From a virus, in IMG/VR virus record IMGVR_UViG_3300044712_000815, positions 1 to 64,000 of that record: a stretch of 64,000 bases of DNA; one strand, given 5' to 3'. Made by a program: the position numbers and the translations under genes. The notes under the pieces were generated by a model that did no database searches, had not been told where the DNA came from, and saw only the letters and a list, made by a program, of their open reading frames with translations. The stretch's first letter is position 1, and the number at the start of each line of letters is the position of its first letter. Positions 16,761 to 43,836 of the stretch are shown here, one piece after another.

Positions 16761-17804
16761 ATGAAAAATTTATATACTAAAAATGAATTTTTAACACTTC
16801 GAAATGATGATATTTTAAATGAAGGTTTAGTGACAGGATTATTTAAGGGTTTATTTAATAGTGTAGCAAAACTAGCAAATAAAATTAAAGGCACTAAAGA
16901 AATAGATAAAATTTTTAATCAGTATAAAGGTTTTATTGACCAAGCGTTTGCAAAATTAGGTAATGTTGGTACAGCCGAACAAGCTGCAACAGCAGCAACC
17001 ACACCAACAACCAAACAAAATAAACAACAACCAATTAGTGGTACAACCCAACAAAATGCTAGTTTTGGATATAATTCATTTGATATTTTAAATGAAGTTG
17101 AAACAGCACCAACTACACCATCAGCAAAAGCAACTGTAAAAAATCAAGAAAAACAAAATACAACTGAACAAAAAAATTTAGTGAATTTGACACCACAAAA
17201 AATAGCAGAACTTACTAAAATTACACAAAATAGAATAGAAGAATTAAGAAAACAATTTGAAGTTGCAATAGATGCGGTAATAACAAAATTGACTAAAAAT
17301 CCAAATTATTCATCAGATAAATTAAATCAATATGCTATGGTTCAAAAAAATGCATTTATGACATATGTGTATGATCAATGGTATGGTTTTTATCAAAAGG
17401 TGGGTGATCAGAAAAGGCTTACAGAATTAGTAAAGGTAAAAAAAGAAAATGAAGCAAAATATAAACAATCAATAGCTGAACTAAATACCAAATTAGGTGA
17501 AAAACAAAAAAAAGTTGATGTGGTTACAGCTGGAAATTACATCTATCACAATACAAAGGGTAAGGATATTACAGTAACAGTTATTGGTAAAGAATTGGGT
17601 AAGGATGAAAATGGTAATAATGATGCAACCGATCCAAAACATAATGGAATGTGGAAAGTTAAATCAGGTGATGCGTCTTTTTGGATATCACCAGAATCAT
17701 TTAAGGCTAAGGCAACAGAAACAACAACAGTTGCACCAGCAACAACAGAAACAACAACAGTTGCACCAGCAACAACAACAGAAACAACAACAGTTGCACT
17801 ATAA
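16761..17804 (+). CDS. Probable internal head protein with TETTTVAPA repeats
   Basis: ILNE|G cleavage-like sites; late promoter. Confidence 0.5.
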   Translation: MKNLYTKNEFLTLRNDDILNEGLVTGLFKGLFNSVAKLANKIKGTKEIDKIFNQYKGFIDQAFAKLGNVGTAEQAATAATTPTTKQNKQQPISGTTQQNASFGYNSFDILNEVETAPTTPSAKATVKNQEKQNTTEQKNLVNLTPQKIAELTKITQNRIEELRKQFEVAIDAVITKLTKNPNYSSDKLNQYAMVQKNAFMTYVYDQWYGFYQKVGDQKRLTELVKVKKENEAKYKQSIAELNTKLGEKQKKVDVVTAGNYIYHNTKGKDITVTVIGKELGKDENGNNDATDPKHNGMWKVKSGDASFWISPESFKAKATETTTVAPATTETTTVAPATTTETTTVAL

Positions 17805-18894: not shown

Positions 18895-19338
18895 ATGAAA
18901 GATAAAAATAATATAGAGGGGGATAAGCGTATGATAGAAAAATTTGCTTTGATTATAGTGAAACAAATGGGTACTGTTGGATCAGTTATTATTCATACTA
19001 TATTATTTACTATTGCAATATTATTGTATATATTTAATTGCTTTGATCGAGATACAATATTACTCGTTCTTACTACGATTGTTTCATTAGAAGCAATATA
19101 TTTATCGGTTTTTATTCAAATGGGATTGAATTCATTAAAAGAAAATGTTGAAGATATCCAAGAAAATGTTGAAGATATCCAAGAAAATGTTGAAGATATC
19201 CAAGAAGATGTTGAAGAATTGAATGAAGATGAAGATGAAGAAGATGATGAAGATGAAGACCTCAAAAAAATCAAAGAAACATTGGATATATTAGTTAAAG
19301 AAATAAAAGATTTAAAAAAGAAAAATAAAAATATTTAA
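18895..19338 (+). CDS. DUF1003-like membrane protein with ENVEDIQ repeats
   Basis: Two TM helices, LTTIVSLEAIYLS motif, acidic coiled tail. Confidence 0.65.
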   Translation: MKDKNNIEGDKRMIEKFALIIVKQMGTVGSVIIHTILFTIAILLYIFNCFDRDTILLVLTTIVSLEAIYLSVFIQMGLNSLKENVEDIQENVEDIQENVEDIQEDVEELNEDEDEEDDEDEDLKKIKETLDILVKEIKDLKKKNKNI

Positions 19339-19802
19339 TGAATAAGTTAAAAAAATTTGAAAGTTTTAATGAAAAAAATTTCAATGATAACATTATCATG
19401 AATTCTAAAATTCATCCAAATATTAAGGAAGAATTATTGCTTAGATTTAATAAATATGATAATACATATCAATATGAGTCAGATTTTTTATTTGGGTTTA
19501 TAAATTCACTAATAGTAAAAGGATATTGTAAAAATGTAACAAAAATAGAAATTAATGATGATGATTTTGAAATACCAGAAGAATTATATTATAAATGGGT
19601 CGTTAAATATTTTTCTCAATACTTATCAGAATTAACATTCAATATTGTAACAGAATCTGAATATCCATTATATACACCCGATGGAATGTTTGATGGAAGA
19701 AGTTTAATTGATATATATGATATAGATGATGATTTAATTATAACAACAGATTTTAATATTATCAATAACATTGAAGGTAAATTATATTTTGATGAAAAAT
19801 AA
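19338..19802 (+). CDS. Hypothetical protein, CTS-like N-terminus
   Basis: MNKLKKFESFNE. Confidence 0.5.
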   Translation: MNKLKKFESFNEKNFNDNIIMNSKIHPNIKEELLLRFNKYDNTYQYESDFLFGFINSLIVKGYCKNVTKIEINDDDFEIPEELYYKWVVKYFSQYLSELTFNIVTESEYPLYTPDGMFDGRSLIDIYDIDDDLIITTDFNIINNIEGKLYFDEK

Positions 19803-19925
19803 AAATAATTGGGTATATCATTCACAAGAAATAAAAAATTAAACTTTTTTATTTAATTATCATATATTATAAAAATGGAAAAAAATGATATTTTTTCATT
19901 AATATATAAAAAAGTTGAAAAAATA

Positions 19926-19957
19926 TTTGGTGGTTACAAAAAAACATTTTATATTTG
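19926..19957 (+). promoter_or_regulatory. Bacteroidota primary-sigma promoter for the tRNA array
   Basis: TTTG (19926-29) - 20 nt - TATATTTG (19950-57). Confidence 0.75.
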
Positions 19958-19993
19958 CAACAGAATTTAAAAACAAGTAAACAAATTTAAGAA

Positions 19994-20104
19994 ATGAAAA
20001 ACATTAGTGTAAATATCGCAACAGTGGCAGCAACAGCAACTACCCCAACAACAGGAGGCAGACCAGTCAGCTTATGTCCATCGGAGATATTATACCTAAT
20101 GTAA
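19994..20104 (+). CDS. Attenuator leader peptide MKNISVNIATVAATATTPTTGGRPVSLCPSEILYLM
   Basis: 36-codon ORF between promoter and terminator; codons 9-25 are only Ala/Thr/Val/Pro/Gly/Arg. Confidence 0.75.
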   Translation: MKNISVNIATVAATATTPTTGGRPVSLCPSEILYLM

Positions 20105-20121
20105 AATATAGGAAAAATAAA

Positions 20122-20160
20122 AAAAAACCCGATGGATGCAAAGCAACCATCGGGTTTTTT
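20122..20160 (+). terminator. Attenuator terminator hairpin (5' arm can alternatively pair with 20075-20084)
   Basis: AAAAAACCCGATGG-ATGCAAAGCAA-CCATCGGGTTTTTT. Confidence 0.85.
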
Positions 20161-20182
20161 GTTTATGTTCTTTGAAAGATAA

Positions 20183-20258
20183 CGGGAAGCGATCCAATTA
20201 GGCGTGGTTACCTCACTTGGAATGAGGATTATTGCAGGTTCGACCCCTGTCTTCCCGA
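20183..20258 (+). tRNA. tRNA-Pro(TGG)
   Basis: CGGGAAG/CTTCCCG acceptor; CCTCA-CTTGGAA-TGAGG; TTCGA T-loop. Confidence 0.8.
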
Positions 20259-20289: not shown

Positions 20290-20313
20290 GTTCATTGACA
20301 TATTGAATTTATA
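20290..20313 (+). promoter_or_regulatory. boxA-like antitermination site GTTCATTGACATATTGAATTTATA (repeated at ~21454)
   Basis: Identical 24-mer precedes two tRNA sub-clusters; related GTTCWTTG at 20167, 31974 and 43411. Confidence 0.55.
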
Positions 20314-20396
20314 TAGTAGTGGAGGAATTGGTTACCTCGCCTGATTTGGGATCAGGAGATCGAAAGTGTATGTGGGTTCGAGTCCCACCTATTATA
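20313..20396 (+). tRNA. tRNA-Pro(TGG), extended variable region
   Basis: CCTGA-TTTGGGA-TCAGG; GTGGG-TTCGAGT-CCCAC. Confidence 0.75.
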
Positions 20397-20455
20397 CAAA
20401 ATATAAAAAAGTTCGTTTTTATTTTTTAATATATAACTAAAATAGAAACGAACTT

Positions 20456-21331
20456 ATGAATAAAAATAAAAATTGTTGGAGAAAAATTGATACATATGCC
20501 AAAAAATTAAAGGCGATTATATTATTAGGTGGTAAATGTGAACATTGTGGTGAAACTAATTTTTTTAAATTAGAATTTCATCATTTAGAATCAGAAGAAA
20601 AAGAATATAATATATCACGAATTAGAAATTATAGATGGTCAATTATTGAATCAGAAATAAAAAAATGTAAATTATTATGTCGAAATTGTCATAATGAAGA
20701 ACACAATGGATATAAAGATAAAAGAAGATTTATTAATAAAAATACATTTTTAGATTTTAAAAAAACAATTAAATGTGAAAAATGTGAATATGATAAATAT
20801 ATTGGATCATTAGATTTTCATCATATTAATCCAAAAATTAAAGATTTAACATTAAGTCAACTTAGTTTAAAATATAACAACATTCAAGAATTGACTGAAA
20901 ATATTAAAATGGAATTAGATAAATGTGTGGTATTGTGTAAAAATTGTCATTCATTAGAACATTCAGATATTGAATTTTTCGAAAAATATAAAGATATAAT
21001 TATTGAAAAATCTAAAAATCTAAAAGAAGTTCAATCAAAAATTGATAGATATGAAGTAAAAAAATTGTATGATGGTGGAATGAAACAAATTGATATTGCT
21101 AAAAAATTAAATGCATCTAAAAGTACGATTAGTGATATAATTAAAATGTCAAAAGATATAATAAGTAAAGAAAAAAGAATAAATAAAGATGATGTTAAAA
21201 AATTGTATGAATGTGGAATGAAACAAATTGATATTGCTAAAAAATTAAATACCAATAGTAGTACAATTTGTGAAATTATAAAAAAATTAAAATTAAATGG
21301 TCTTGTAGTAGCGGAGTCTTCTAAACTCTAG
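20456..21331 (+). CDS. HNH homing endonuclease (two HNH modules + two HTH repeats) inside tRNA array
   Basis: CEHCG..LEFHH..LCRNCH and CEKC..LDFHH..LCKNCH; MKQIDIAKKLN x2; 3' end overlaps the next tRNA-like gene. Confidence 0.85.
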   Translation: MNKNKNCWRKIDTYAKKLKAIILLGGKCEHCGETNFFKLEFHHLESEEKEYNISRIRNYRWSIIESEIKKCKLLCRNCHNEEHNGYKDKRRFINKNTFLDFKKTIKCEKCEYDKYIGSLDFHHINPKIKDLTLSQLSLKYNNIQELTENIKMELDKCVVLCKNCHSLEHSDIEFFEKYKDIIIEKSKNLKEVQSKIDRYEVKKLYDGGMKQIDIAKKLNASKSTISDIIKMSKDIISKEKRINKDDVKKLYECGMKQIDIAKKLNTNSSTICEIIKKLKLNGLVVAESSKL

Positions 21332-21378
21332 TCGTATAATGGACACTGTAAATGTGGGTTCGAGTCCCACCTGGATCA
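21299..21378 (+). tRNA. D-armless tRNA-Arg(TCT)-like RNA
   Basis: GGTCTTG/CTGGATC acceptor, 7-nt connector, GGAGT-CTTCTAA-ACTCT, 24-nt variable region, GTGGG-TTCGAGT-CCCAC. Confidence 0.7.
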
Positions 21379-21476
21379 CAAAAATGAATGTTCACTTGTT
21401 CACGAAAAATAACCGTTCACGAAACGTGAACAAATGAATAAAATGAATAAAGAGTTCATTGACATATTGAATTTAT

Positions 21477-21549
21477 AGGGGATGGGACTGCTTGGTGTGG
21501 TCGCTGTACATACGGTACAGAGAGATGGCTTCGAAAACCATATCTTCTA
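21477..21549 (+). tRNA. Degenerate tRNA-like gene (TAC anticodon, A33, G3:U70 acceptor)
   Basis: AGGGGAT/ATCTTCT; GACT/GGTC D-stem; CTGTA-CATACGG-TACAG; imperfect T-stem. Confidence 0.5.
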
Positions 21550-21554
21550 CTATT

Positions 21555-21626
21555 GGGGGTTTAGTATAATGGCTATTACATCTGGTTTGCAACCACAAGA
21601 TACGAGTTCGATTCTCGTAACCTCCA
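21555..21626 (+). tRNA. tRNA-Ala(TGC)
   Basis: GGGGGTT/AACCTCC with G3:U70; one anticodon-stem mismatch. Confidence 0.8.
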
Positions 21627-21630
21627 CAAT

Positions 21631-21704
21631 GGGGCTGTAGTTCAGTTGGCTAGAACATCTGATTTGCATTCAGAAGATCGAGGGTTCGAGACCCTTCAGC
21701 TCCA
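21631..21704 (+). tRNA. tRNA-Ala(TGC)
   Basis: Canonical cloverleaf, G3:U70. Confidence 0.9.
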
Positions 21705-21709
21705 CAAAT

Positions 21710-21782
<73 letters not shown>

Positions 21783-21789
21783 CGGATAA

Positions 21790-21850
21790 AGAATATTAAC
21801 AGCAAATTAAAAACAATCAAATTTACATTTTGACTAAAAGAAATATTCTG
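21790..21850 (+). ncRNA. CAGCAA-scaffold RNA copy A, displaying a Val(TAC) anticodon stem-loop
   Basis: AGAATATT..CAGCAA..TCAAA-TTTACAT-TTTGA..AATATTCTG. Confidence 0.6.
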
Positions 21851-21868
21851 TTCTAAATTAAAATCTAA

Positions 21869-21938
21869 AGATTACATACAGCAAATTAAAAAAAGAAACA
21901 AACTTGTAAATTGTAAAATCTGAAAAAAATGTATTCTG
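21869..21938 (+). ncRNA. CAGCAA-scaffold RNA copy B, displaying a Thr(TGT) anticodon stem-loop
   Basis: AGATTACAT..CAGCAA..ACAAA-CTTGTAA-ATTGT..ATGTATTCTG. Confidence 0.6.
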
Positions 21939-21947
21939 TGGTTTTAT

Positions 21948-22019
21948 GCAGGTATAGCACAACGGTTAGTGTAAGAGATTTCCAATCTTTTGATGTGGGT
22001 TCGATTCCCACTACCTGCT
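21948..22019 (+). tRNA. tRNA-Gly(TCC)
   Basis: Canonical cloverleaf. Confidence 0.9.
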
Positions 22020-22084
22020 CAAACATAAGGCGTTGGTTTACGTGGTTAGTCTTTATCCATGTGCTTATGAAGAAAAAGACAAAT

Positions 22085-22170
22085 GCGAGTGTTGATCTAG
22101 TGGTCGATGACACCTGACTTCCAATCAGGTAAGCGAAAGCGCACCGTGGGTTCGAATCCCATCACTCGCT
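22085..22170 (+). tRNA. tRNA-Gly(TCC), long variable arm
   Basis: CCTGA-CTTCCAA-TCAGG; variable arm GC-GAAA-GC. Confidence 0.8.
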
Positions 22171-22214
22171 CGTGGGTTTAGACTTTTTAGACTTCGTATG
22201 GAAAAAAGTTAATT

Positions 22215-22287
22215 GCAAGATGAAGCTTAATTGGATGAAGTGCCTGATTACCAATCAGGAGAAGGGGTTCGACTCCCACATCTTGCT
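22215..22287 (+). tRNA. tRNA-Gly(ACC), weak T-stem
   Basis: GCAAGAT/ATCTTGC; CCTGA-TTACCAA-TCAGG. Confidence 0.65.
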
Positions 22288-22288
22288 C

Positions 22289-22362
22289 GTAAGTGTATAT
22301 CAATTGGTAGATAGTCACGTTGCCAACGTGAAGGTTTGCGGGTTCGAGTCCCGTTACTTACT
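22289..22362 (+). tRNA. tRNA-Gly(GCC)
   Basis: TCACG-TTGCCAA-CGTGA. Confidence 0.85.
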
Positions 22363-22368
22363 CAATAA

Positions 22369-22443
22369 GGGTGATTAGCTCAGTTGGTTCAGAGCGTTTG
22401 GTTTACACCCAAAGGGTCGGGGGTTCGACTCCCTCATCACCCA
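22369..22443 (+). tRNA. tRNA-Val(TAC)
   Basis: Canonical cloverleaf. Confidence 0.9.
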
Positions 22444-22449
22444 CCTTAT

Positions 22450-22535
22450 GTTCCCATAGTGTAATTGGATAAACATCTCACTCTTACAAAGTGAAGACGA
22501 GAAGTATAATACAGGTTCGAGTCCTGTTGGGAACA
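22450..22535 (+). tRNA. tRNA-Val(TAC), extended variable region
   Basis: TCACT-CTTACAA-AGTGA; 16-nt variable region. Confidence 0.8.
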
Positions 22536-22541
22536 CAATTT

Positions 22542-22629
22542 GCCGATGTCGCATAGTGGACTATTGCGCTTGCCTTGTAAGCAAGATACTGAAAGGTTTT
22601 AATCGGGGGTTCGAATCCCTCCATCGGCT
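22542..22629 (+). tRNA. tRNA-Thr(TGT), long variable arm
   Basis: CTTGC-CTTGTAA-GCAAG; ACT-GAAA-GGT arm. Confidence 0.8.
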
Positions 22630-22657
22630 CAACAATATATTATATATAAAGGAAAAA

Positions 22658-23275
22658 ATGAATATCGAAGAACAAAAGAATTTATGGAATAATCCAAATA
22701 ATTGGTCTAATGATGGTAATGAATGGTCAACATATTTTGGGACAACTGAAAATTTATGGAATATATTATATCCTAAATTTAAAAATTATATAATGGGTGA
22801 TGTATTGGAAATTGCACCAGGATTTGGCAGAATGACAGAATATTTATTAAGAAACACGAATGATTTAAGTATAATAGATTTGAATGATATATGTATCGAA
22901 AAATGTAAACAAAGATTTGATACTAGTATTAAGAATTATGTTGTTAATGATGGTAAAACATTGAATTTTAGTGATAATTATTTCGATTTTATTTTTTCAT
23001 ATGATTCGTTTGTGCATATGACAGAAGATGTTATAGAAAGTTACATATCGGAAATACACAGAACATTAAAAAATAATGGTTATGCTTTTATTCATCATTC
23101 ATTTTTTATGGGTGGTAGTGTTGATAAAGCAACGGAAAATATTGGGGGTAGATCAAATATGACACCAAGTCTTTTCAAAAATATAGTTGAAAAATATAAT
23201 ATGACAATTATATCACAAGAAGATTTTAGGGTTTCTGAACAAATAAATGATGCGATTTCAATTTTTAGAAAATAA
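22658..23275 (+). CDS. Class I SAM-dependent methyltransferase
   Basis: VLEIAPGFGR, FDFIFSYDSFVH, LKNNG; start moved to MNIEEQ because the track start lies inside a tRNA. Confidence 0.85.
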   Translation: MNIEEQKNLWNNPNNWSNDGNEWSTYFGTTENLWNILYPKFKNYIMGDVLEIAPGFGRMTEYLLRNTNDLSIIDLNDICIEKCKQRFDTSIKNYVVNDGKTLNFSDNYFDFIFSYDSFVHMTEDVIESYISEIHRTLKNNGYAFIHHSFFMGGSVDKATENIGGRSNMTPSLFKNIVEKYNMTIISQEDFRVSEQINDAISIFRK

Positions 23276-23279
23276 TTTT

Positions 23280-23352
23280 GCCGCAATAACTTTAATGGTA
23301 GAGTGCCACACTTGTAATGTGGAAGTTGGGGGTTCGAGTCCCTCTTGCGGCT
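23280..23352 (+). tRNA. tRNA-Thr(TGT)
   Basis: Canonical cloverleaf. Confidence 0.9.
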
Positions 23353-23356
23353 CTAA

Positions 23357-23429
23357 CGGGGTGTAATTCAGTTGGTAGAATGCGTGGTTTGGGTCCACGA
23401 TGCCGTCAGTTCGAGTCTGGCCACCCCGA
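23357..23429 (+). tRNA. tRNA-Pro(TGG)
   Basis: Canonical cloverleaf. Confidence 0.9.
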
Positions 23430-23448
23430 CAATTTTGGTTTTTAGATG

Positions 23449-24498
23449 TTAATTCAAATTATATTTTGCAAGTGTGACATCCCAAAGATCACTATTGATA
23501 AATTTTATAAGGTTTTTATTAATATTGTTTTCGATAGTTTTGTCACATTTCATACCGATACCATAATATTGTCGATCAAAAGTACTATTAGATAGGTGTA
23601 TTTTTTTAAGATTATTTTTCTTTATATAATATTTAAGAATTGGTGTATCATATACAAAAGTTTCCAAATTTTTACATTCTAAATCATTTAATGCTTCTTC
23701 GATACTATCATATCCAATGAATTTGATATTTTTTGAATTTAAATAATCCACTGCTGTGGTATTTAGAAATGATCCAACTTTTGTTTTATTTAATTGATTG
23801 ATATCTTCTAAGCCATTATCTAACCTATTTACAGTAATAGCAGATGAAATATTACCAATAAAAACTGAAGTGATTCCTAAAGAAATAAGCATCCATAAAA
23901 TTACTATAAGTTTACCTAGTTTAGTTTTTGCTGATTTATCACCAAATCCAACTGTGCTCATAACGACAGTGGCGAAGTAGAACGCATCATAAATACCAAT
24001 AGATACACTTTTATCAAAATCTGGATTATATTTATGTTCAACTAACCATATTAATATTCCAACTATAAAAATAATAAGTAATAAGGATAACACATATTTT
24101 AAAAAAGTAAGTGAAAAAATATTTGAAACTATTGACCAAAATGCAGATTTGGATAAATTTGAAGCTATACTAAGATCTGTTATATAAAAAGGTTGGGAAA
24201 AATTAATTTTATCCATTCGGGTATCACTAATTGTGATTGATCCAAGAATAATATCAAATTTATTTTTGCTAAGTTCATCAACCATTCCATTTATTGAACC
24301 ATCATAAATTTCATATACGTATTCGATATTTGATTCTTTGGCAATTCTTTCCCAAATATCAACGATAAGACCAGTATAGCTACCATTAACATCCATCATT
24401 ACGAATGGTGGCGAATCATACAATCCAACTTTAAGTGGTTCAGATTTTGTAGTTATTCCAATTAGAATAAGTGTGATAATTAGAATTAATTTTTTCAT
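23449..24498 (-). CDS. GluR0-like ligand-gated K+ channel (split solute-binding domain around a 2TM pore)
   Basis: Signal peptide, PPFVM..TGL..D, ITISDTR..FSQPFY, TM-STVGFGD-TM, then S2 lobe; start MKKLILII behind a TATATTTG promoter. Confidence 0.85.
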   Translation of the reverse strand: MKKLILIITLILIGITTKSEPLKVGLYDSPPFVMMDVNGSYTGLIVDIWERIAKESNIEYVYEIYDGSINGMVDELSKNKFDIILGSITISDTRMDKINFSQPFYITDLSIASNLSKSAFWSIVSNIFSLTFLKYVLSLLLIIFIVGILIWLVEHKYNPDFDKSVSIGIYDAFYFATVVMSTVGFGDKSAKTKLGKLIVILWMLISLGITSVFIGNISSAITVNRLDNGLEDINQLNKTKVGSFLNTTAVDYLNSKNIKFIGYDSIEEALNDLECKNLETFVYDTPILKYYIKKNNLKKIHLSNSTFDRQYYGIGMKCDKTIENNINKNLIKFINSDLWDVTLAKYNLN

Positions 24499-24571
24499 AT
24501 GTTTTTTTTTGTACAAATATAACAATTTTTTTGAAATAATTGGATAATATATAAAAAAAATTATTACATTT

Positions 24572-24645
24572 GCCGTCATAGCTTTAATTGGTAGAGTACC
24601 TGATTCGTAATCAGGATGTTGTGGGTTCGAGTCCCACTGACGGCT
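24572..24645 (+). tRNA. tRNA-Thr(CGT)
   Basis: Canonical cloverleaf. Confidence 0.9.
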
Positions 24646-24714
24646 CAATCAGATAGAATATTAGATTTGGTTATTTTTTGAAGTTCGAATATTTATATAT
24701 ACAAATAAAACTGT

Positions 24715-25587
24715 ATGTGTAAATGTAAAATATGTGGTAAAGAATGCAAAAATGTTAATGGAATAGCAAAACATCTAAACATACATAATATAGAATTATT
24801 AAAATATTATGTTAAATATGAAGATTTTGAAATACCAAAATGTATAATATGTGGAAAAGATGCAAAATTAAATAAAGGATTAAAATTTAGAAGAACTTGT
24901 AGTGATATATCTTGTGGTAACAAAACACATAAAATAATACATTCAACTGAAACAAAAATATTACTATCAGAAAAACGTAAAAAATATTTAAAATTAAATC
25001 CAGATAAACATCCTTGGAAACAAAAAGATAAACAATTATCTGTTCCATGTGAATTATTTAAAACAAAATTAAAAAATAATAATATCAATTATATTGAAGA
25101 ATATTCACCATTAGAAGATAGATTTTTTAGTATAGATATTGCGTTTCCTGATAAAAAAATAGGAATTGAAATTAATGGAAATCAACATTATGAAACAAAT
25201 GGAAAATTGAAAAAATATTATCAAGAAAGAAAAAATATAATAGAAAAAGGTGGTTGGAAATTGTATGATATTTATTATACTAAAGTTTATGATGATGATT
25301 TTTGTAATATCGTAATAAATAATTTAAAAAATAATAATTTAGGCTTAATAAATTATGAATTTATTAAATATACAAAAAATACAAATAAATGTGTAGATTG
25401 TAGTTGTGATATAAGTAATGGTGCTAAACGATGTAAAAAATGTAATATTTTAAATAGAATTAAAAATCGACCTAACATAGAACAATTAAAATTAGATATA
25501 ATAGAATTGGGATATTGTGGAACAGGAAGAAAATATAATGTTAGTGATAATGCGATAAGAAAATGGATAAATAGTCCCGTAGCTTAA
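24715..25587 (+). CDS. Putative homing endonuclease (zinc fingers, NUMOD3-like, PD-(D/E)xK/DUF559-like, HTH)
   Basis: IDIAFPDKKIGIEINGNQH; HSTETK..LS; 3' end overlaps tRNA-Arg. Confidence 0.75.
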   Translation: MCKCKICGKECKNVNGIAKHLNIHNIELLKYYVKYEDFEIPKCIICGKDAKLNKGLKFRRTCSDISCGNKTHKIIHSTETKILLSEKRKKYLKLNPDKHPWKQKDKQLSVPCELFKTKLKNNNINYIEEYSPLEDRFFSIDIAFPDKKIGIEINGNQHYETNGKLKKYYQERKNIIEKGGWKLYDIYYTKVYDDDFCNIVINNLKNNNLGLINYEFIKYTKNTNKCVDCSCDISNGAKRCKKCNILNRIKNRPNIEQLKLDIIELGYCGTGRKYNVSDNAIRKWINSPVA

Positions 25588-25645
25588 ACGGAAAAGCCAC
25601 AGATTTCTAATCTGTTGAGTATGAGTTCGAATCTCATCGGGATTA
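25573..25645 (+). tRNA. tRNA-Arg(TCT)
   Basis: Canonical cloverleaf ACAGA-TTTCTAA-TCTGT. Confidence 0.9.
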
Positions 25646-25648
25646 CTT

Positions 25649-25720
25649 GCGAGTGTAGCTCAGGGGTAGAGCATAACCTTGCCAAGGTTAGGGTCGTGGG
25701 TTCAATTCCCTTCACTCGCT
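25649..25720 (+). tRNA. tRNA-Gly(GCC)
   Basis: Canonical cloverleaf. Confidence 0.85.
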
Positions 25721-25965
25721 CAATGTGTAATTCATTAATTTGAATGTTGGAAAAAAGTAGTGGTACTGGATTCTTTTTTGGGTAAGGTAAAAGATGAAGT
25801 AATTATCATTAATAACTTACAAACACAATCGCAAGTGTTTTCGGTTAATATCCGACACATTTAAATCACATATGATCTAACTATAAAGAAACATAACTTA
25901 TGGACATTGTTAGGTTAATGGTTGCAGTAGATAAGAATAATTATGTTTCTTATGTGGTTTTATTT

Positions 25966-26044
25966 GCACCTGTAGTGGCGGGGTTTCCTAAACCTTATGT
26001 GCATAACGGAATGAAAAATGTGGGTTCGAATCCCACCTGGTGTA
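25966..26044 (+). tRNA. D-armless tRNA-Arg(CCT)-like RNA
   Basis: GCACCTG/CTGGTGT, 7-nt connector, GGGGT-TTCCTAA-ACCTT, 23-nt variable region, GTGGG-TTCGAAT-CCCAC. Confidence 0.7.
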
Positions 26045-31824: not shown

Positions 31825-31997
31825 AAAATTATTAAACTTTTTTTTTAATTTATACTACAAATATTATTCTTTAAAAAATGGAAAAAAATGACATTTTTTA
31901 AAGAATATATAAAAATTGAAAAATATTAAATTTTTTTACAGTAATTGGTAATTAAAATTTAATATTTGTCAAACGTTCATTGAAGAAAAAATTATAA

Positions 31998-43207: not shown

Positions 43208-43417
43208 TTTACACAATATCACAGAAGAAATTCTACAAAAAAATGGCATAAGATCAATTTCTATTATTAGTGAAGCATCATGGAAACCTATGATGCGAAT
43301 TAAATATTTAAATGGTAGTGAAAATAAAATATATGATAAGGAAATTGATAAATTTTTAAAAGAATTAAAATAGAAAAAACTTAATAAAAGAATATTACTA
43401 TATAGATTACGTTCTTT

Positions 43418-43779
43418 GGGGATGACTGGTTTAGACAGTTTTGTGAAATATGGTTATCAGCAGGTATCGCATCATCTAATAAGCGATTAATAAATTATGG
43501 GTAAAAACAATAAATGGCAAAGCACATACGCATATCGCTACTTCAAGATCAACTTATGCAGTTACTAGAACTGCAGTTGAAGCCGAAGTTTCTGTAGCCT
43601 AATCAGAAAATCTAGAAATCTTTTAGTAAACTATTTTGGGATCGCCAAAAATGTTTAGTGGATTTAATATTTACCATCAAAAAAATTATTTATTTTGTTT
43701 CAATTAGAAAATTGAAAATAAACCTGTAGAAGATGCTAAAAGACATTATTGGACCCGAGTTCGAATCTCGGCATCTCCA
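43418..43779 (+). ncRNA. ssrA: tmRNA with 28-codon tag (43516..43602)
   Basis: GGGGATG/CATCTCC-A acceptor with G3:U70, GAC..CCGAG-TTCGAAT-CTCGG T-arm, TAAAT before resume codon GGC. Confidence 0.9.
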
Positions 43780-43836
43780 CTAACTTAGCCATAAAAGCAT
43801 AAAAAGCATAATTAATTATATTATGCTTTTTTAGTT

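Follow-up and report, generated by a model that had tools for sequence, protein, structure and literature searches.

A predicted codon-matched leader-peptide attenuator upstream of a tRNA operon in a very large phage

A tRNA operon of a very large phage is preceded by what appears to be a ribosome-mediated leader-peptide transcription attenuator that would gate expression of the operon, a reading to which we give a probability of roughly 85% on the basis of sequence and comparison. A short open reading frame (ORF), the match of its codons to the tRNAs encoded downstream, an intrinsic terminator, an antiterminator specific to its own locus, and the geometry of these elements were all identified by sequence analysis and by comparison with related loci (Table 1). 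The tRNAs would probably be made only when ribosomes decode the control codons of the leader slowly.

The window analysed in this study is 64,000 nucleotides long and starts at position 1 of a virus contig of 159 kb (26% G+C). The completeness of this contig was estimated to be 22%, which implies a phage genome of ~700 kb. At the DNA level, the only relatives detected by blastn among GenBank phages were the 636-735-kb "uncultured phage" sequences LR756501, LR756503 and LR756504 and Lak-type megaphages, and the sole matching region was the HNH gene. No relatives of the neighbouring ORF at 19338-19802 were found in viral or metagenome contigs.

Table 1. Features of the predicted attenuator locus in the window, and the leaders of the five tRNA arrays of LR756501
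Feature	Position	Strand	Description
Conserved megaphage upstream block	19873..19909	+	AAATGGAAAAAAATGAYNTTTTTT, a few bases, then AATATATAA; imperfect inverted repeat inside
Bacteroidota-type promoter	19926..19957	+	-33 TTTG 19926-29, spacer 20 nt, -7 TATATTTG 19950-57; read from sequence
Leader ORF	19994..20104	+	36 codons, ATG to TAA
Control codons 9-25	20018..20068	+	Encode ATVAATATTPTTGGRPV, all Ala/Thr/Val/Pro/Gly/Arg
Antiterminator strand (segment 2)	20070..20084	+	Core TGTCCATCGG 20075-84, extendable to 20070
Intrinsic terminator	20128..20160	+	5' arm 20128-39, loop, 3' arm 20143-54, T6 20155-60
boxA-like box	20167..20178	+	GTTCTTTGAAAG, between terminator and first tRNA
First tRNA, Pro(TGG)	20183..20258	+	Rfam RF00005, 38.5 bits; atypical D arm
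Second boxA-like box	20290..20306	+	GTTCATTGACATATTGA, repeated at 21454
Remaining tRNA array	20313..26044	+	Pro, Ala, Thr, Gly, Val, Arg; HNH-type ORF and other genes interspersed
LR756501 Ile/Cys/Asp/Asn/Tyr array			Leader central residues YNDYCIND
LR756501 Met/Gln/Ile/Glu array			Leader central residues IINMIQEQMQQIQ
LR756501 Arg/Thr/Val/Ala/Gly/Pro array			Leader central residues TPAPAVAFRRGTGTGTGTCVPAG
LR756501 Trp/His/Phe/Lys/Ser array			Leader central residues SKHSKHFSSSSKWF
LR756501 Leu array			Leader Leu-rich, all six Leu codons

The promoter, leader ORF, terminator and first tRNA that a first-pass annotation had listed from the letters of the DNA were all present where it had placed them. 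The leader ORF starts ~36 nt 3' of the promoter and follows an A-rich leader without a Shine-Dalgarno sequence. The 17 consecutive codons restricted to six amino-acid families, to which the same annotation had drawn attention, were found as described, and the downstream array encodes tRNAs for exactly these six families. Ala, Thr, Val, Pro, Gly and Arg account for 25.4% of the residues in ORFs of at least 150 aa on the 159-kb contig, so that a 17-residue run has a chance of ~8e-11 per start if residues are independent. In the six frames of the contig this run ranks third-longest, behind two 19-residue runs that stem from a single Thr-rich repeat at 145.3 kb, read on either strand. Because Thr-rich low-complexity runs occur in phage proteins (at 17700-17800 and at 145.3 kb), the codon run alone is not decisive. 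Anticodons of the array read 16 of the 17 control codons under standard wobble rules; the odd codon is GTC, which is cognate only if U34 of tRNA-Val(TAC) reads C. The leader-array match was 0.51 in frame versus 0.15 in the other two frames. Low-complexity tails or linkers composed of Thr, Ala, Val and Pro are a recurrent feature of the phage's proteins (window 17690-17804; contig 145245-145380 and 86695-86767).

The terminator consists of an outer stem, CCCGATGG (20128-35) with CCATCGGG (20147-54), and an inner 3-bp stem, with a ΔG of -17.3 to -17.9 kcal/mol. It is preceded by an A-run, which gives it a bidirectional appearance, and a simple terminator pattern scan returned no match at 20128-20160, where the loop is longer than 8 nt. 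Near the 3' end of the leader ORF, TGTCCATCGG (20075-84) is complementary to CCGATGGATG (20129-38) through 8 Watson-Crick and 2 G-U pairs, exactly as had been proposed, and the energy of the antiterminator duplex was -16.1 kcal/mol, compared with -8.5 ± 2 in 200 dinucleotide shuffles of the leader (z -3.7, p<=0.005). Folding yielded both of the conformers that the earlier proposal required: the minimum free energy structure of nascent RNA spanning 19965-20146, which ends before the 3' arm, contains the antiterminator helix lengthened by GCUU/AAGC, and once the leader is complete the terminator is favoured (-17.9 versus -11.6 kcal/mol for the antiterminator). Since the terminator is the more stable at equilibrium, any switch must be kinetic; known attenuators also switch kinetically. 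The antiterminator strand ends 17 nt before the stop codon (16 nt if the duplex takes in 20085), a spacing that fits the edge of a ribosome footprint, and a terminating ribosome may mask the strand.

Pairing of segment 2 with a segment 1, of the kind that forms an anti-antiterminator or pause hairpin, was not found in the window (p 0.89), and there was no excess of such pairing across loci (mean z +0.37, with p<=0.05 at 4% of loci). The trp/thr-type architecture originally suggested for this locus thus holds for the ORF, the control codons, the terminator and the antiterminator, and segment-1 pairing is not detectable. The layout is consequently a three-segment variant of trp-type attenuation, and an untranslated leader should default to read-through, unlike in trp.

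The promoter at 19926-19957 is identical in the ortholog L304, described below. Of 39 loci, 17 have the motif TTTG-N18-21-TAnnTTTG no more than 130 nt 5' of the ATG of their leader, compared with 2.1% of random windows from the same loci. The conserved upstream block has a second copy in the window at 31866-31905, and in 9 viral and 37 metagenome contigs it is found 5' of capsid-like genes and of further tRNA leaders, a distribution suggesting that it is probably a phage-specific promoter or operator. The window has both this block and the host-type -33/-7 promoter; some megaphage leaders have the block alone, without a host-type promoter. One consideration against the attenuator is that the block may serve a non-host polymerase, which might respond differently to the terminator. 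In related megaphage contigs (L011, L013, L014, L017-L019, L275-L311) the genes that follow the block are capsid-like genes, tRNA leaders and other RNA loci.

ARAGORN and Rfam together identified tRNAs for Pro, Ala, Thr, Gly, Val and Arg only in the array, which extends to ~26 kb. The first tRNA was detected by Rfam and missed by ARAGORN, and the composition of the array also rests on a tRNA-Thr(TGT) at 23280 and two Arg-like RNAs. Only ~20 nt lie between the U-tract of the terminator and the first tRNA, which leaves no room for a separate promoter, so that the array relies on read-through. The Pro, Gly, Val and Thr tRNAs at 20313, 22085, 22450 and 22542 are 85-89 nt long with long variable arms, and each has a twin of normal length that shares its anticodon. 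The array behind the attenuator of L304 opens with the long-arm tRNA-Pro, and the tRNA at 20183 with its box therefore looks like an extra inserted unit.

The boxA-like elements between the terminator and the array have the consensus GTTCTTTGACATATTGG in homologous phage loci. The box at 20290 agrees with this 17-mer at 15 of its 17 positions; the one at 20167 has diverged further. Ribosomal RNA (rrn) operons carry a spacer boxA in the 16S-23S spacer. The exact 17-mer occurs in many Bacteroidota genomes, and its position was checked at three bacterial loci: in each, it is found within the 16S-23S spacer, 3' of the spacer tRNAs, with ~150-200 nt left before the 23S gene. Its presence in Bacteroidota rrn spacers (loci L155-L234) points to a Bacteroidota host and to Nus-type antitermination, and polymerases that escape the attenuator may be made resistant to termination by the boxA-like site while they transcribe the long structured array. 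Boxes of the form GTTCWTTG(ACATATTGG) stand 5' of stable-RNA genes of the phage at 20167, 20290, 21454, 31975 and 43411, including a phage-encoded tmRNA (window 43418-43782; Rfam 80 bits; tag of 28 residues), which has the box GTTCTTTG directly at its 5' end.

The close ortholog L304, with ~84% identity, has kept the promoter, the ATG and the reading frame. Within the first 28 codons, differences from the window are either synonymous (AAC>AAT, CCA>CCC, TTA>CTA, TGT>TGC) or to residues of the six families, and the four amino-acid differences in or adjoining the control block are all of the latter kind (A>T, T>V, V>A, S>R). The antiterminator core CCATCGG/CCGATGG is unchanged in L304, and the distal three pairs are altered on both strands (T·G, G·U, U-A to A-U, U-A, G-C). 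The terminator of L304 retains the outer stem, with divergence in the inner part. No exact-pattern match to the window's own terminator and control block was found in viral contigs.

Three more members of the six-family leader class were recovered by a metagenome scan with the conserved upstream block. The leaders of L281 and L306 have an unrelated peptide order (VAVVAVARPVGVRPAGRGT, TANTTTTGRPAASRPVVAGRR) with the same composition as in the window, and their terminators, which differ from that of the window, are accompanied by their own matching antiterminators (p 0.017, 0.023). Furthermore, LR756501 encodes a homologous Arg/Thr/Val/Ala/Gly/Pro array, 5' of which (L006) are found the conserved block (AAAATGGAAAAAAATGA..TTTTTT..AATATATAA), a 42-codon ORF and then a terminator. 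The middle of this ORF reads TPAPAVAFRRGTGTGTGTCVPAG, again unrelated to the window in peptide order and alike in composition. In L006, GGGTGTGGGT near the 3' end of the ORF is complementary to ACCCACACCC, which overlaps the 5' arm of the terminator; this pairing rests on reading by eye, since the automatic picker mis-assigned the terminator. The ORF, the codon bias and the antiterminator, whose conservation in homologues had been set out as a test in the first-pass annotation, are thus kept in L304 and in the distant L281, L306 and L006 of LR756501.

The 735-kb LR756501 has five tRNA arrays, each with its own matched leader. The sets served by these arrays (CDINY, EIMQ, AGPRTV, FHKSW and L) jointly include all 20 amino acids. 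When every leader was scored on every array of LR756501, the leader's own array ranked top for four of the five. The exception was the Leu leader, which with 33% Leu scored 0.33 on its own single-residue set versus 0.43 on CDINY. An ORF resembling bL12 (L7/L12) is located between the attenuator and the Ile/Cys/Asp/Asn/Tyr array of LR756501 (L005 5240-5610) and would share the control of that leader. At L010 1086-1239 and L007 2744-2834, LR756501 also encodes two tRNAs with a CUA anticodon, which suggests that TAG is reassigned in this phage, and a further tRNA with a 4-base anticodon call.

For a wider survey, viral contigs were scanned for the terminator tail GGGTTTTTTGTTT followed after 1-12 nt by GTTCTT. 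At least 66 loci had a tRNA no more than 400 nt downstream of this pattern, and a leader ORF was present in 64 of the 66 pattern-selected loci listed. Addition of manually found loci and removal of similar leaders gave 43 non-redundant loci. Across these, the own array supplied a tRNA for a fraction of 0.466 of the leader residues, compared with 0.312 ± 0.014 for permuted arrays (z 11.4, 0/20,000), and the match at the codon/anticodon level was 0.382 versus 0.240 (z 11.4); such permutations lessen the effect of shared ancestry among loci and do not fully remove it. The co-variation of leader content with array content that had been predicted was therefore seen both among the 43 loci and among the five arrays within LR756501, and with the conservation of ORF, codon bias and pairing it speaks strongly for the earlier interpretation. 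Over loci, the leader-array match was 0.38 in frame and 0.21 out of frame. Counting codons back from the antiterminator strand, matched residues made up 67-87% at offsets -14 to -4 and ~10-25% at most other positions. The match is weak in some leaders (e.g. L057 and L105), partly owing to incomplete locus sequence.

Complementarity of the antiterminator was significant against shuffles (p<=0.05) in 62% of 39 loci, and in the same 39 loci the antiterminator paired better with its own terminator (-10.3 kcal/mol) than with those of other loci (-7.4 kcal/mol; z -10.6, 0/5,000). The geometry was also shared: the end of the antiterminator strand precedes the stop codon by a median of 13 nt across loci, and in most loci the stop codon lies 23-37 nt 5' of the terminator. 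The terminator-plus-box pattern gave 17 matches in 185,579 bacterial and archaeal genomes, and only one of these has downstream tRNAs, on a 3.5-kb contig of a Bacteroidetes metagenome-assembled genome that resembles phage locus L106. An origin of the architecture in host chromosomes was rejected on this ground, and the cassette, judged with this pattern, looks phage-specific.

Taken together, these elements, whose geometry agrees with that of classical attenuators, suggest the following sequence of events. Transcription would start at the promoter or promoters within 19873-19957, and the 36-codon leader would be translated. If the 16-17 control codons are decoded fast, the ribosome would reach the stop codon at 20102, where it would cover or sterically block segment 2 (20070-84); the terminator at 20128-54 could then form, and transcription would end at the U-tract. 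If charged cognate tRNAs are short, decoding would be slow and the ribosome would stall upstream of segment 2, leaving this segment free to capture the emerging 5' arm of the terminator, so that RNA polymerase reads through. The polymerase would next pass the boxA-like site, where it would probably load Nus-type antitermination factors, and transcribe the array. In such a three-segment design, termination would require a ribosome to have moved past the control codons. As the product tRNA is also what the ribosome senses, the circuit would amount to feedback on the supply of exactly those tRNAs. In this scheme we infer that the leader is translated, that ribosomes stall on it and that the switch operates, and likewise what boxA does and which physiological trigger acts.

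Candidate triggers are feedback between tRNA supply and demand, host shut-off, and defence by anticodon nucleases, the last of which the first-pass annotation had already put forward. It is possible, if rather doubtful, that the attenuator is real and serves mainly in counter-defence, supplying replacement tRNAs after host tRNAs have been cleaved by anticodon nucleases or degraded. The same anatomy fits such a role, and independently gated sets covering all 20 amino acids would permit a response specific to each family; the sequence does not separate this role, however, from supply-demand feedback or from a response to amino-acid starvation, and simple tRNA-supply feedback accounts for the data equally well as an anticodon-nuclease trigger. 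Tentatively, large phages of Bacteroidota may carry several codon-gated tRNA operons that together cover the 20 amino acids, with decoding measured family by family and limiting sets topped up, also after cleavage by tRNases.

It is very improbable that the ORF and hairpin are instead an independent small gene or the end of an upstream + strand block, with self-started tRNAs and a codon match that is only a by-product. The A- and T-run flanks do make the hairpin look bidirectional, low-complexity runs of T, A, V and P occur in phage proteins, and the GTTCWTTG box precedes several RNA genes. However, leaders change their composition in step with the array (Leu; Lys/His/Trp/Phe/Ser; Met/Gln/Glu/Ile; and others), and the frame specificity and locus-specific antiterminators would be left unexplained. 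The box, moreover, resembles the rrn spacer boxA rather than a promoter and abuts the mature 5' end of the tmRNA at 43411; GTTCWTTG was considered as a separate promoter and rejected because of its match to the spacer boxA. A linker-like low-complexity remnant was likewise considered and rejected. Even less credence is given to the idea that the region is a structured non-coding RNA, or an ORF arisen by chance within a locally GC-rich stretch. Its overall folding is strong (z -5.3), and sRNA and leader models of Rfam give weak matches below threshold, but the terminator contributes most of that folding signal, the gathering score is not reached for any Rfam family, and ORF, frame and composition are conserved where nucleotides are not. 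This conservation of frame and composition beyond the nucleotide sequence led to rejection of a chance GC-rich ORF.

The leader-peptide attenuator favoured here follows the logic of trp/ilv-type attenuation. Leader attenuators control amino-acid operons in enterobacteria, such as trpL, hisL, thrL, leuL and pheL and the multivalent ilvGMEDA and ilvBN. Like the trp, his, thr and ilv leaders, the phage element has a short ORF predicted to be translated, a run of regulatory codons and an intrinsic terminator; its antiterminator overlaps the 5' arm of the terminator and lies next to the leader stop codon, as in amino-acid operon leaders, and charged-tRNA supply would likewise be sensed via ribosome speed. 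Sensing of several amino acids by one leader is shared with ilv and thr. Unlike amino-acid operon leaders, the phage element would regulate not enzymes but tRNAs, the sensed molecule itself, would sense six families at once, is borne by a phage and has a boxA-like site after the terminator; unlike trp, it has no detectable segment-1/pause hairpin pairing. Matches to Rfam Thr_leader (RF00506) and His_leader (RF00514) scored 23-25 bits, below their gathering cut-offs of 55 and 49.

Other known systems share single features with the locus. The pheM leader attenuator controls pheST, which encodes phenylalanyl-tRNA synthetase, and likewise subjects a translation gene to leader-peptide attenuation that is tuned to the cognate codon; pheM differs from the phage element in its chromosomal location, in its synthetase target and in responding to a single amino acid. 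T-box riboswitches also govern translation-supply genes by transcription antitermination responding to tRNA status, but they bind uncharged tRNA directly and need no translation. No T-box match was obtained in a gathering or a permissive Rfam scan of the locus, and the ORF with its frame-specific codon match points to sensing by the ribosome, not by a T-box. The post-terminator box resembles in sequence the 16S-23S spacer box of Bacteroidota rrn operons and differs from rrn boxA in its place, since it follows the predicted regulated terminator and stands at the start of a phage tRNA operon.

The new aspects would be that the target is the sensed tRNAs, that the carrier is a phage, that six families are sensed, and that the layout is built of three segments. 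Full-text searches of a literature collection from which subscription journals are largely absent brought up no account of tRNA genes or phage tRNA arrays controlled by leader-peptide attenuation, which agrees with the statement of the first-pass annotation that it knew of no attenuator described for a phage tRNA operon. If the proposed mechanism is true, this would be the first class of attenuator in which the sensed tRNA itself is the regulated product, extending classical attenuation from enzyme operons to stable-RNA genes and providing a natural three-segment attenuator design without a trp-type segment 1. The purpose and control of tRNA arrays in large phages are debated, with codon usage, host shut-off and defence evasion under discussion, and a codon-matched attenuator before each array would imply that tRNAs are made on demand, according to decoding speed, per codon family. 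In annotation, the content of an array can be predicted from its leader peptide, which may help with fragmentary phage contigs.

Additional variation was observed among the leaders. Locus L299 (metagenome contig Ga0172381_10235316) has two tandem leader cassettes with near-identical N-termini (MKMIVININKFD...), each with its own terminator and both upstream of a Glu/Met array. Many leader N-termini read M-K/R-T/N, followed by several variable residues and then H/N/Y and I/M (codons 5-8). This shared N-terminus corresponds to an ACATAT-like DNA motif, which was also found after a boxA-like box (GACATATTGG).
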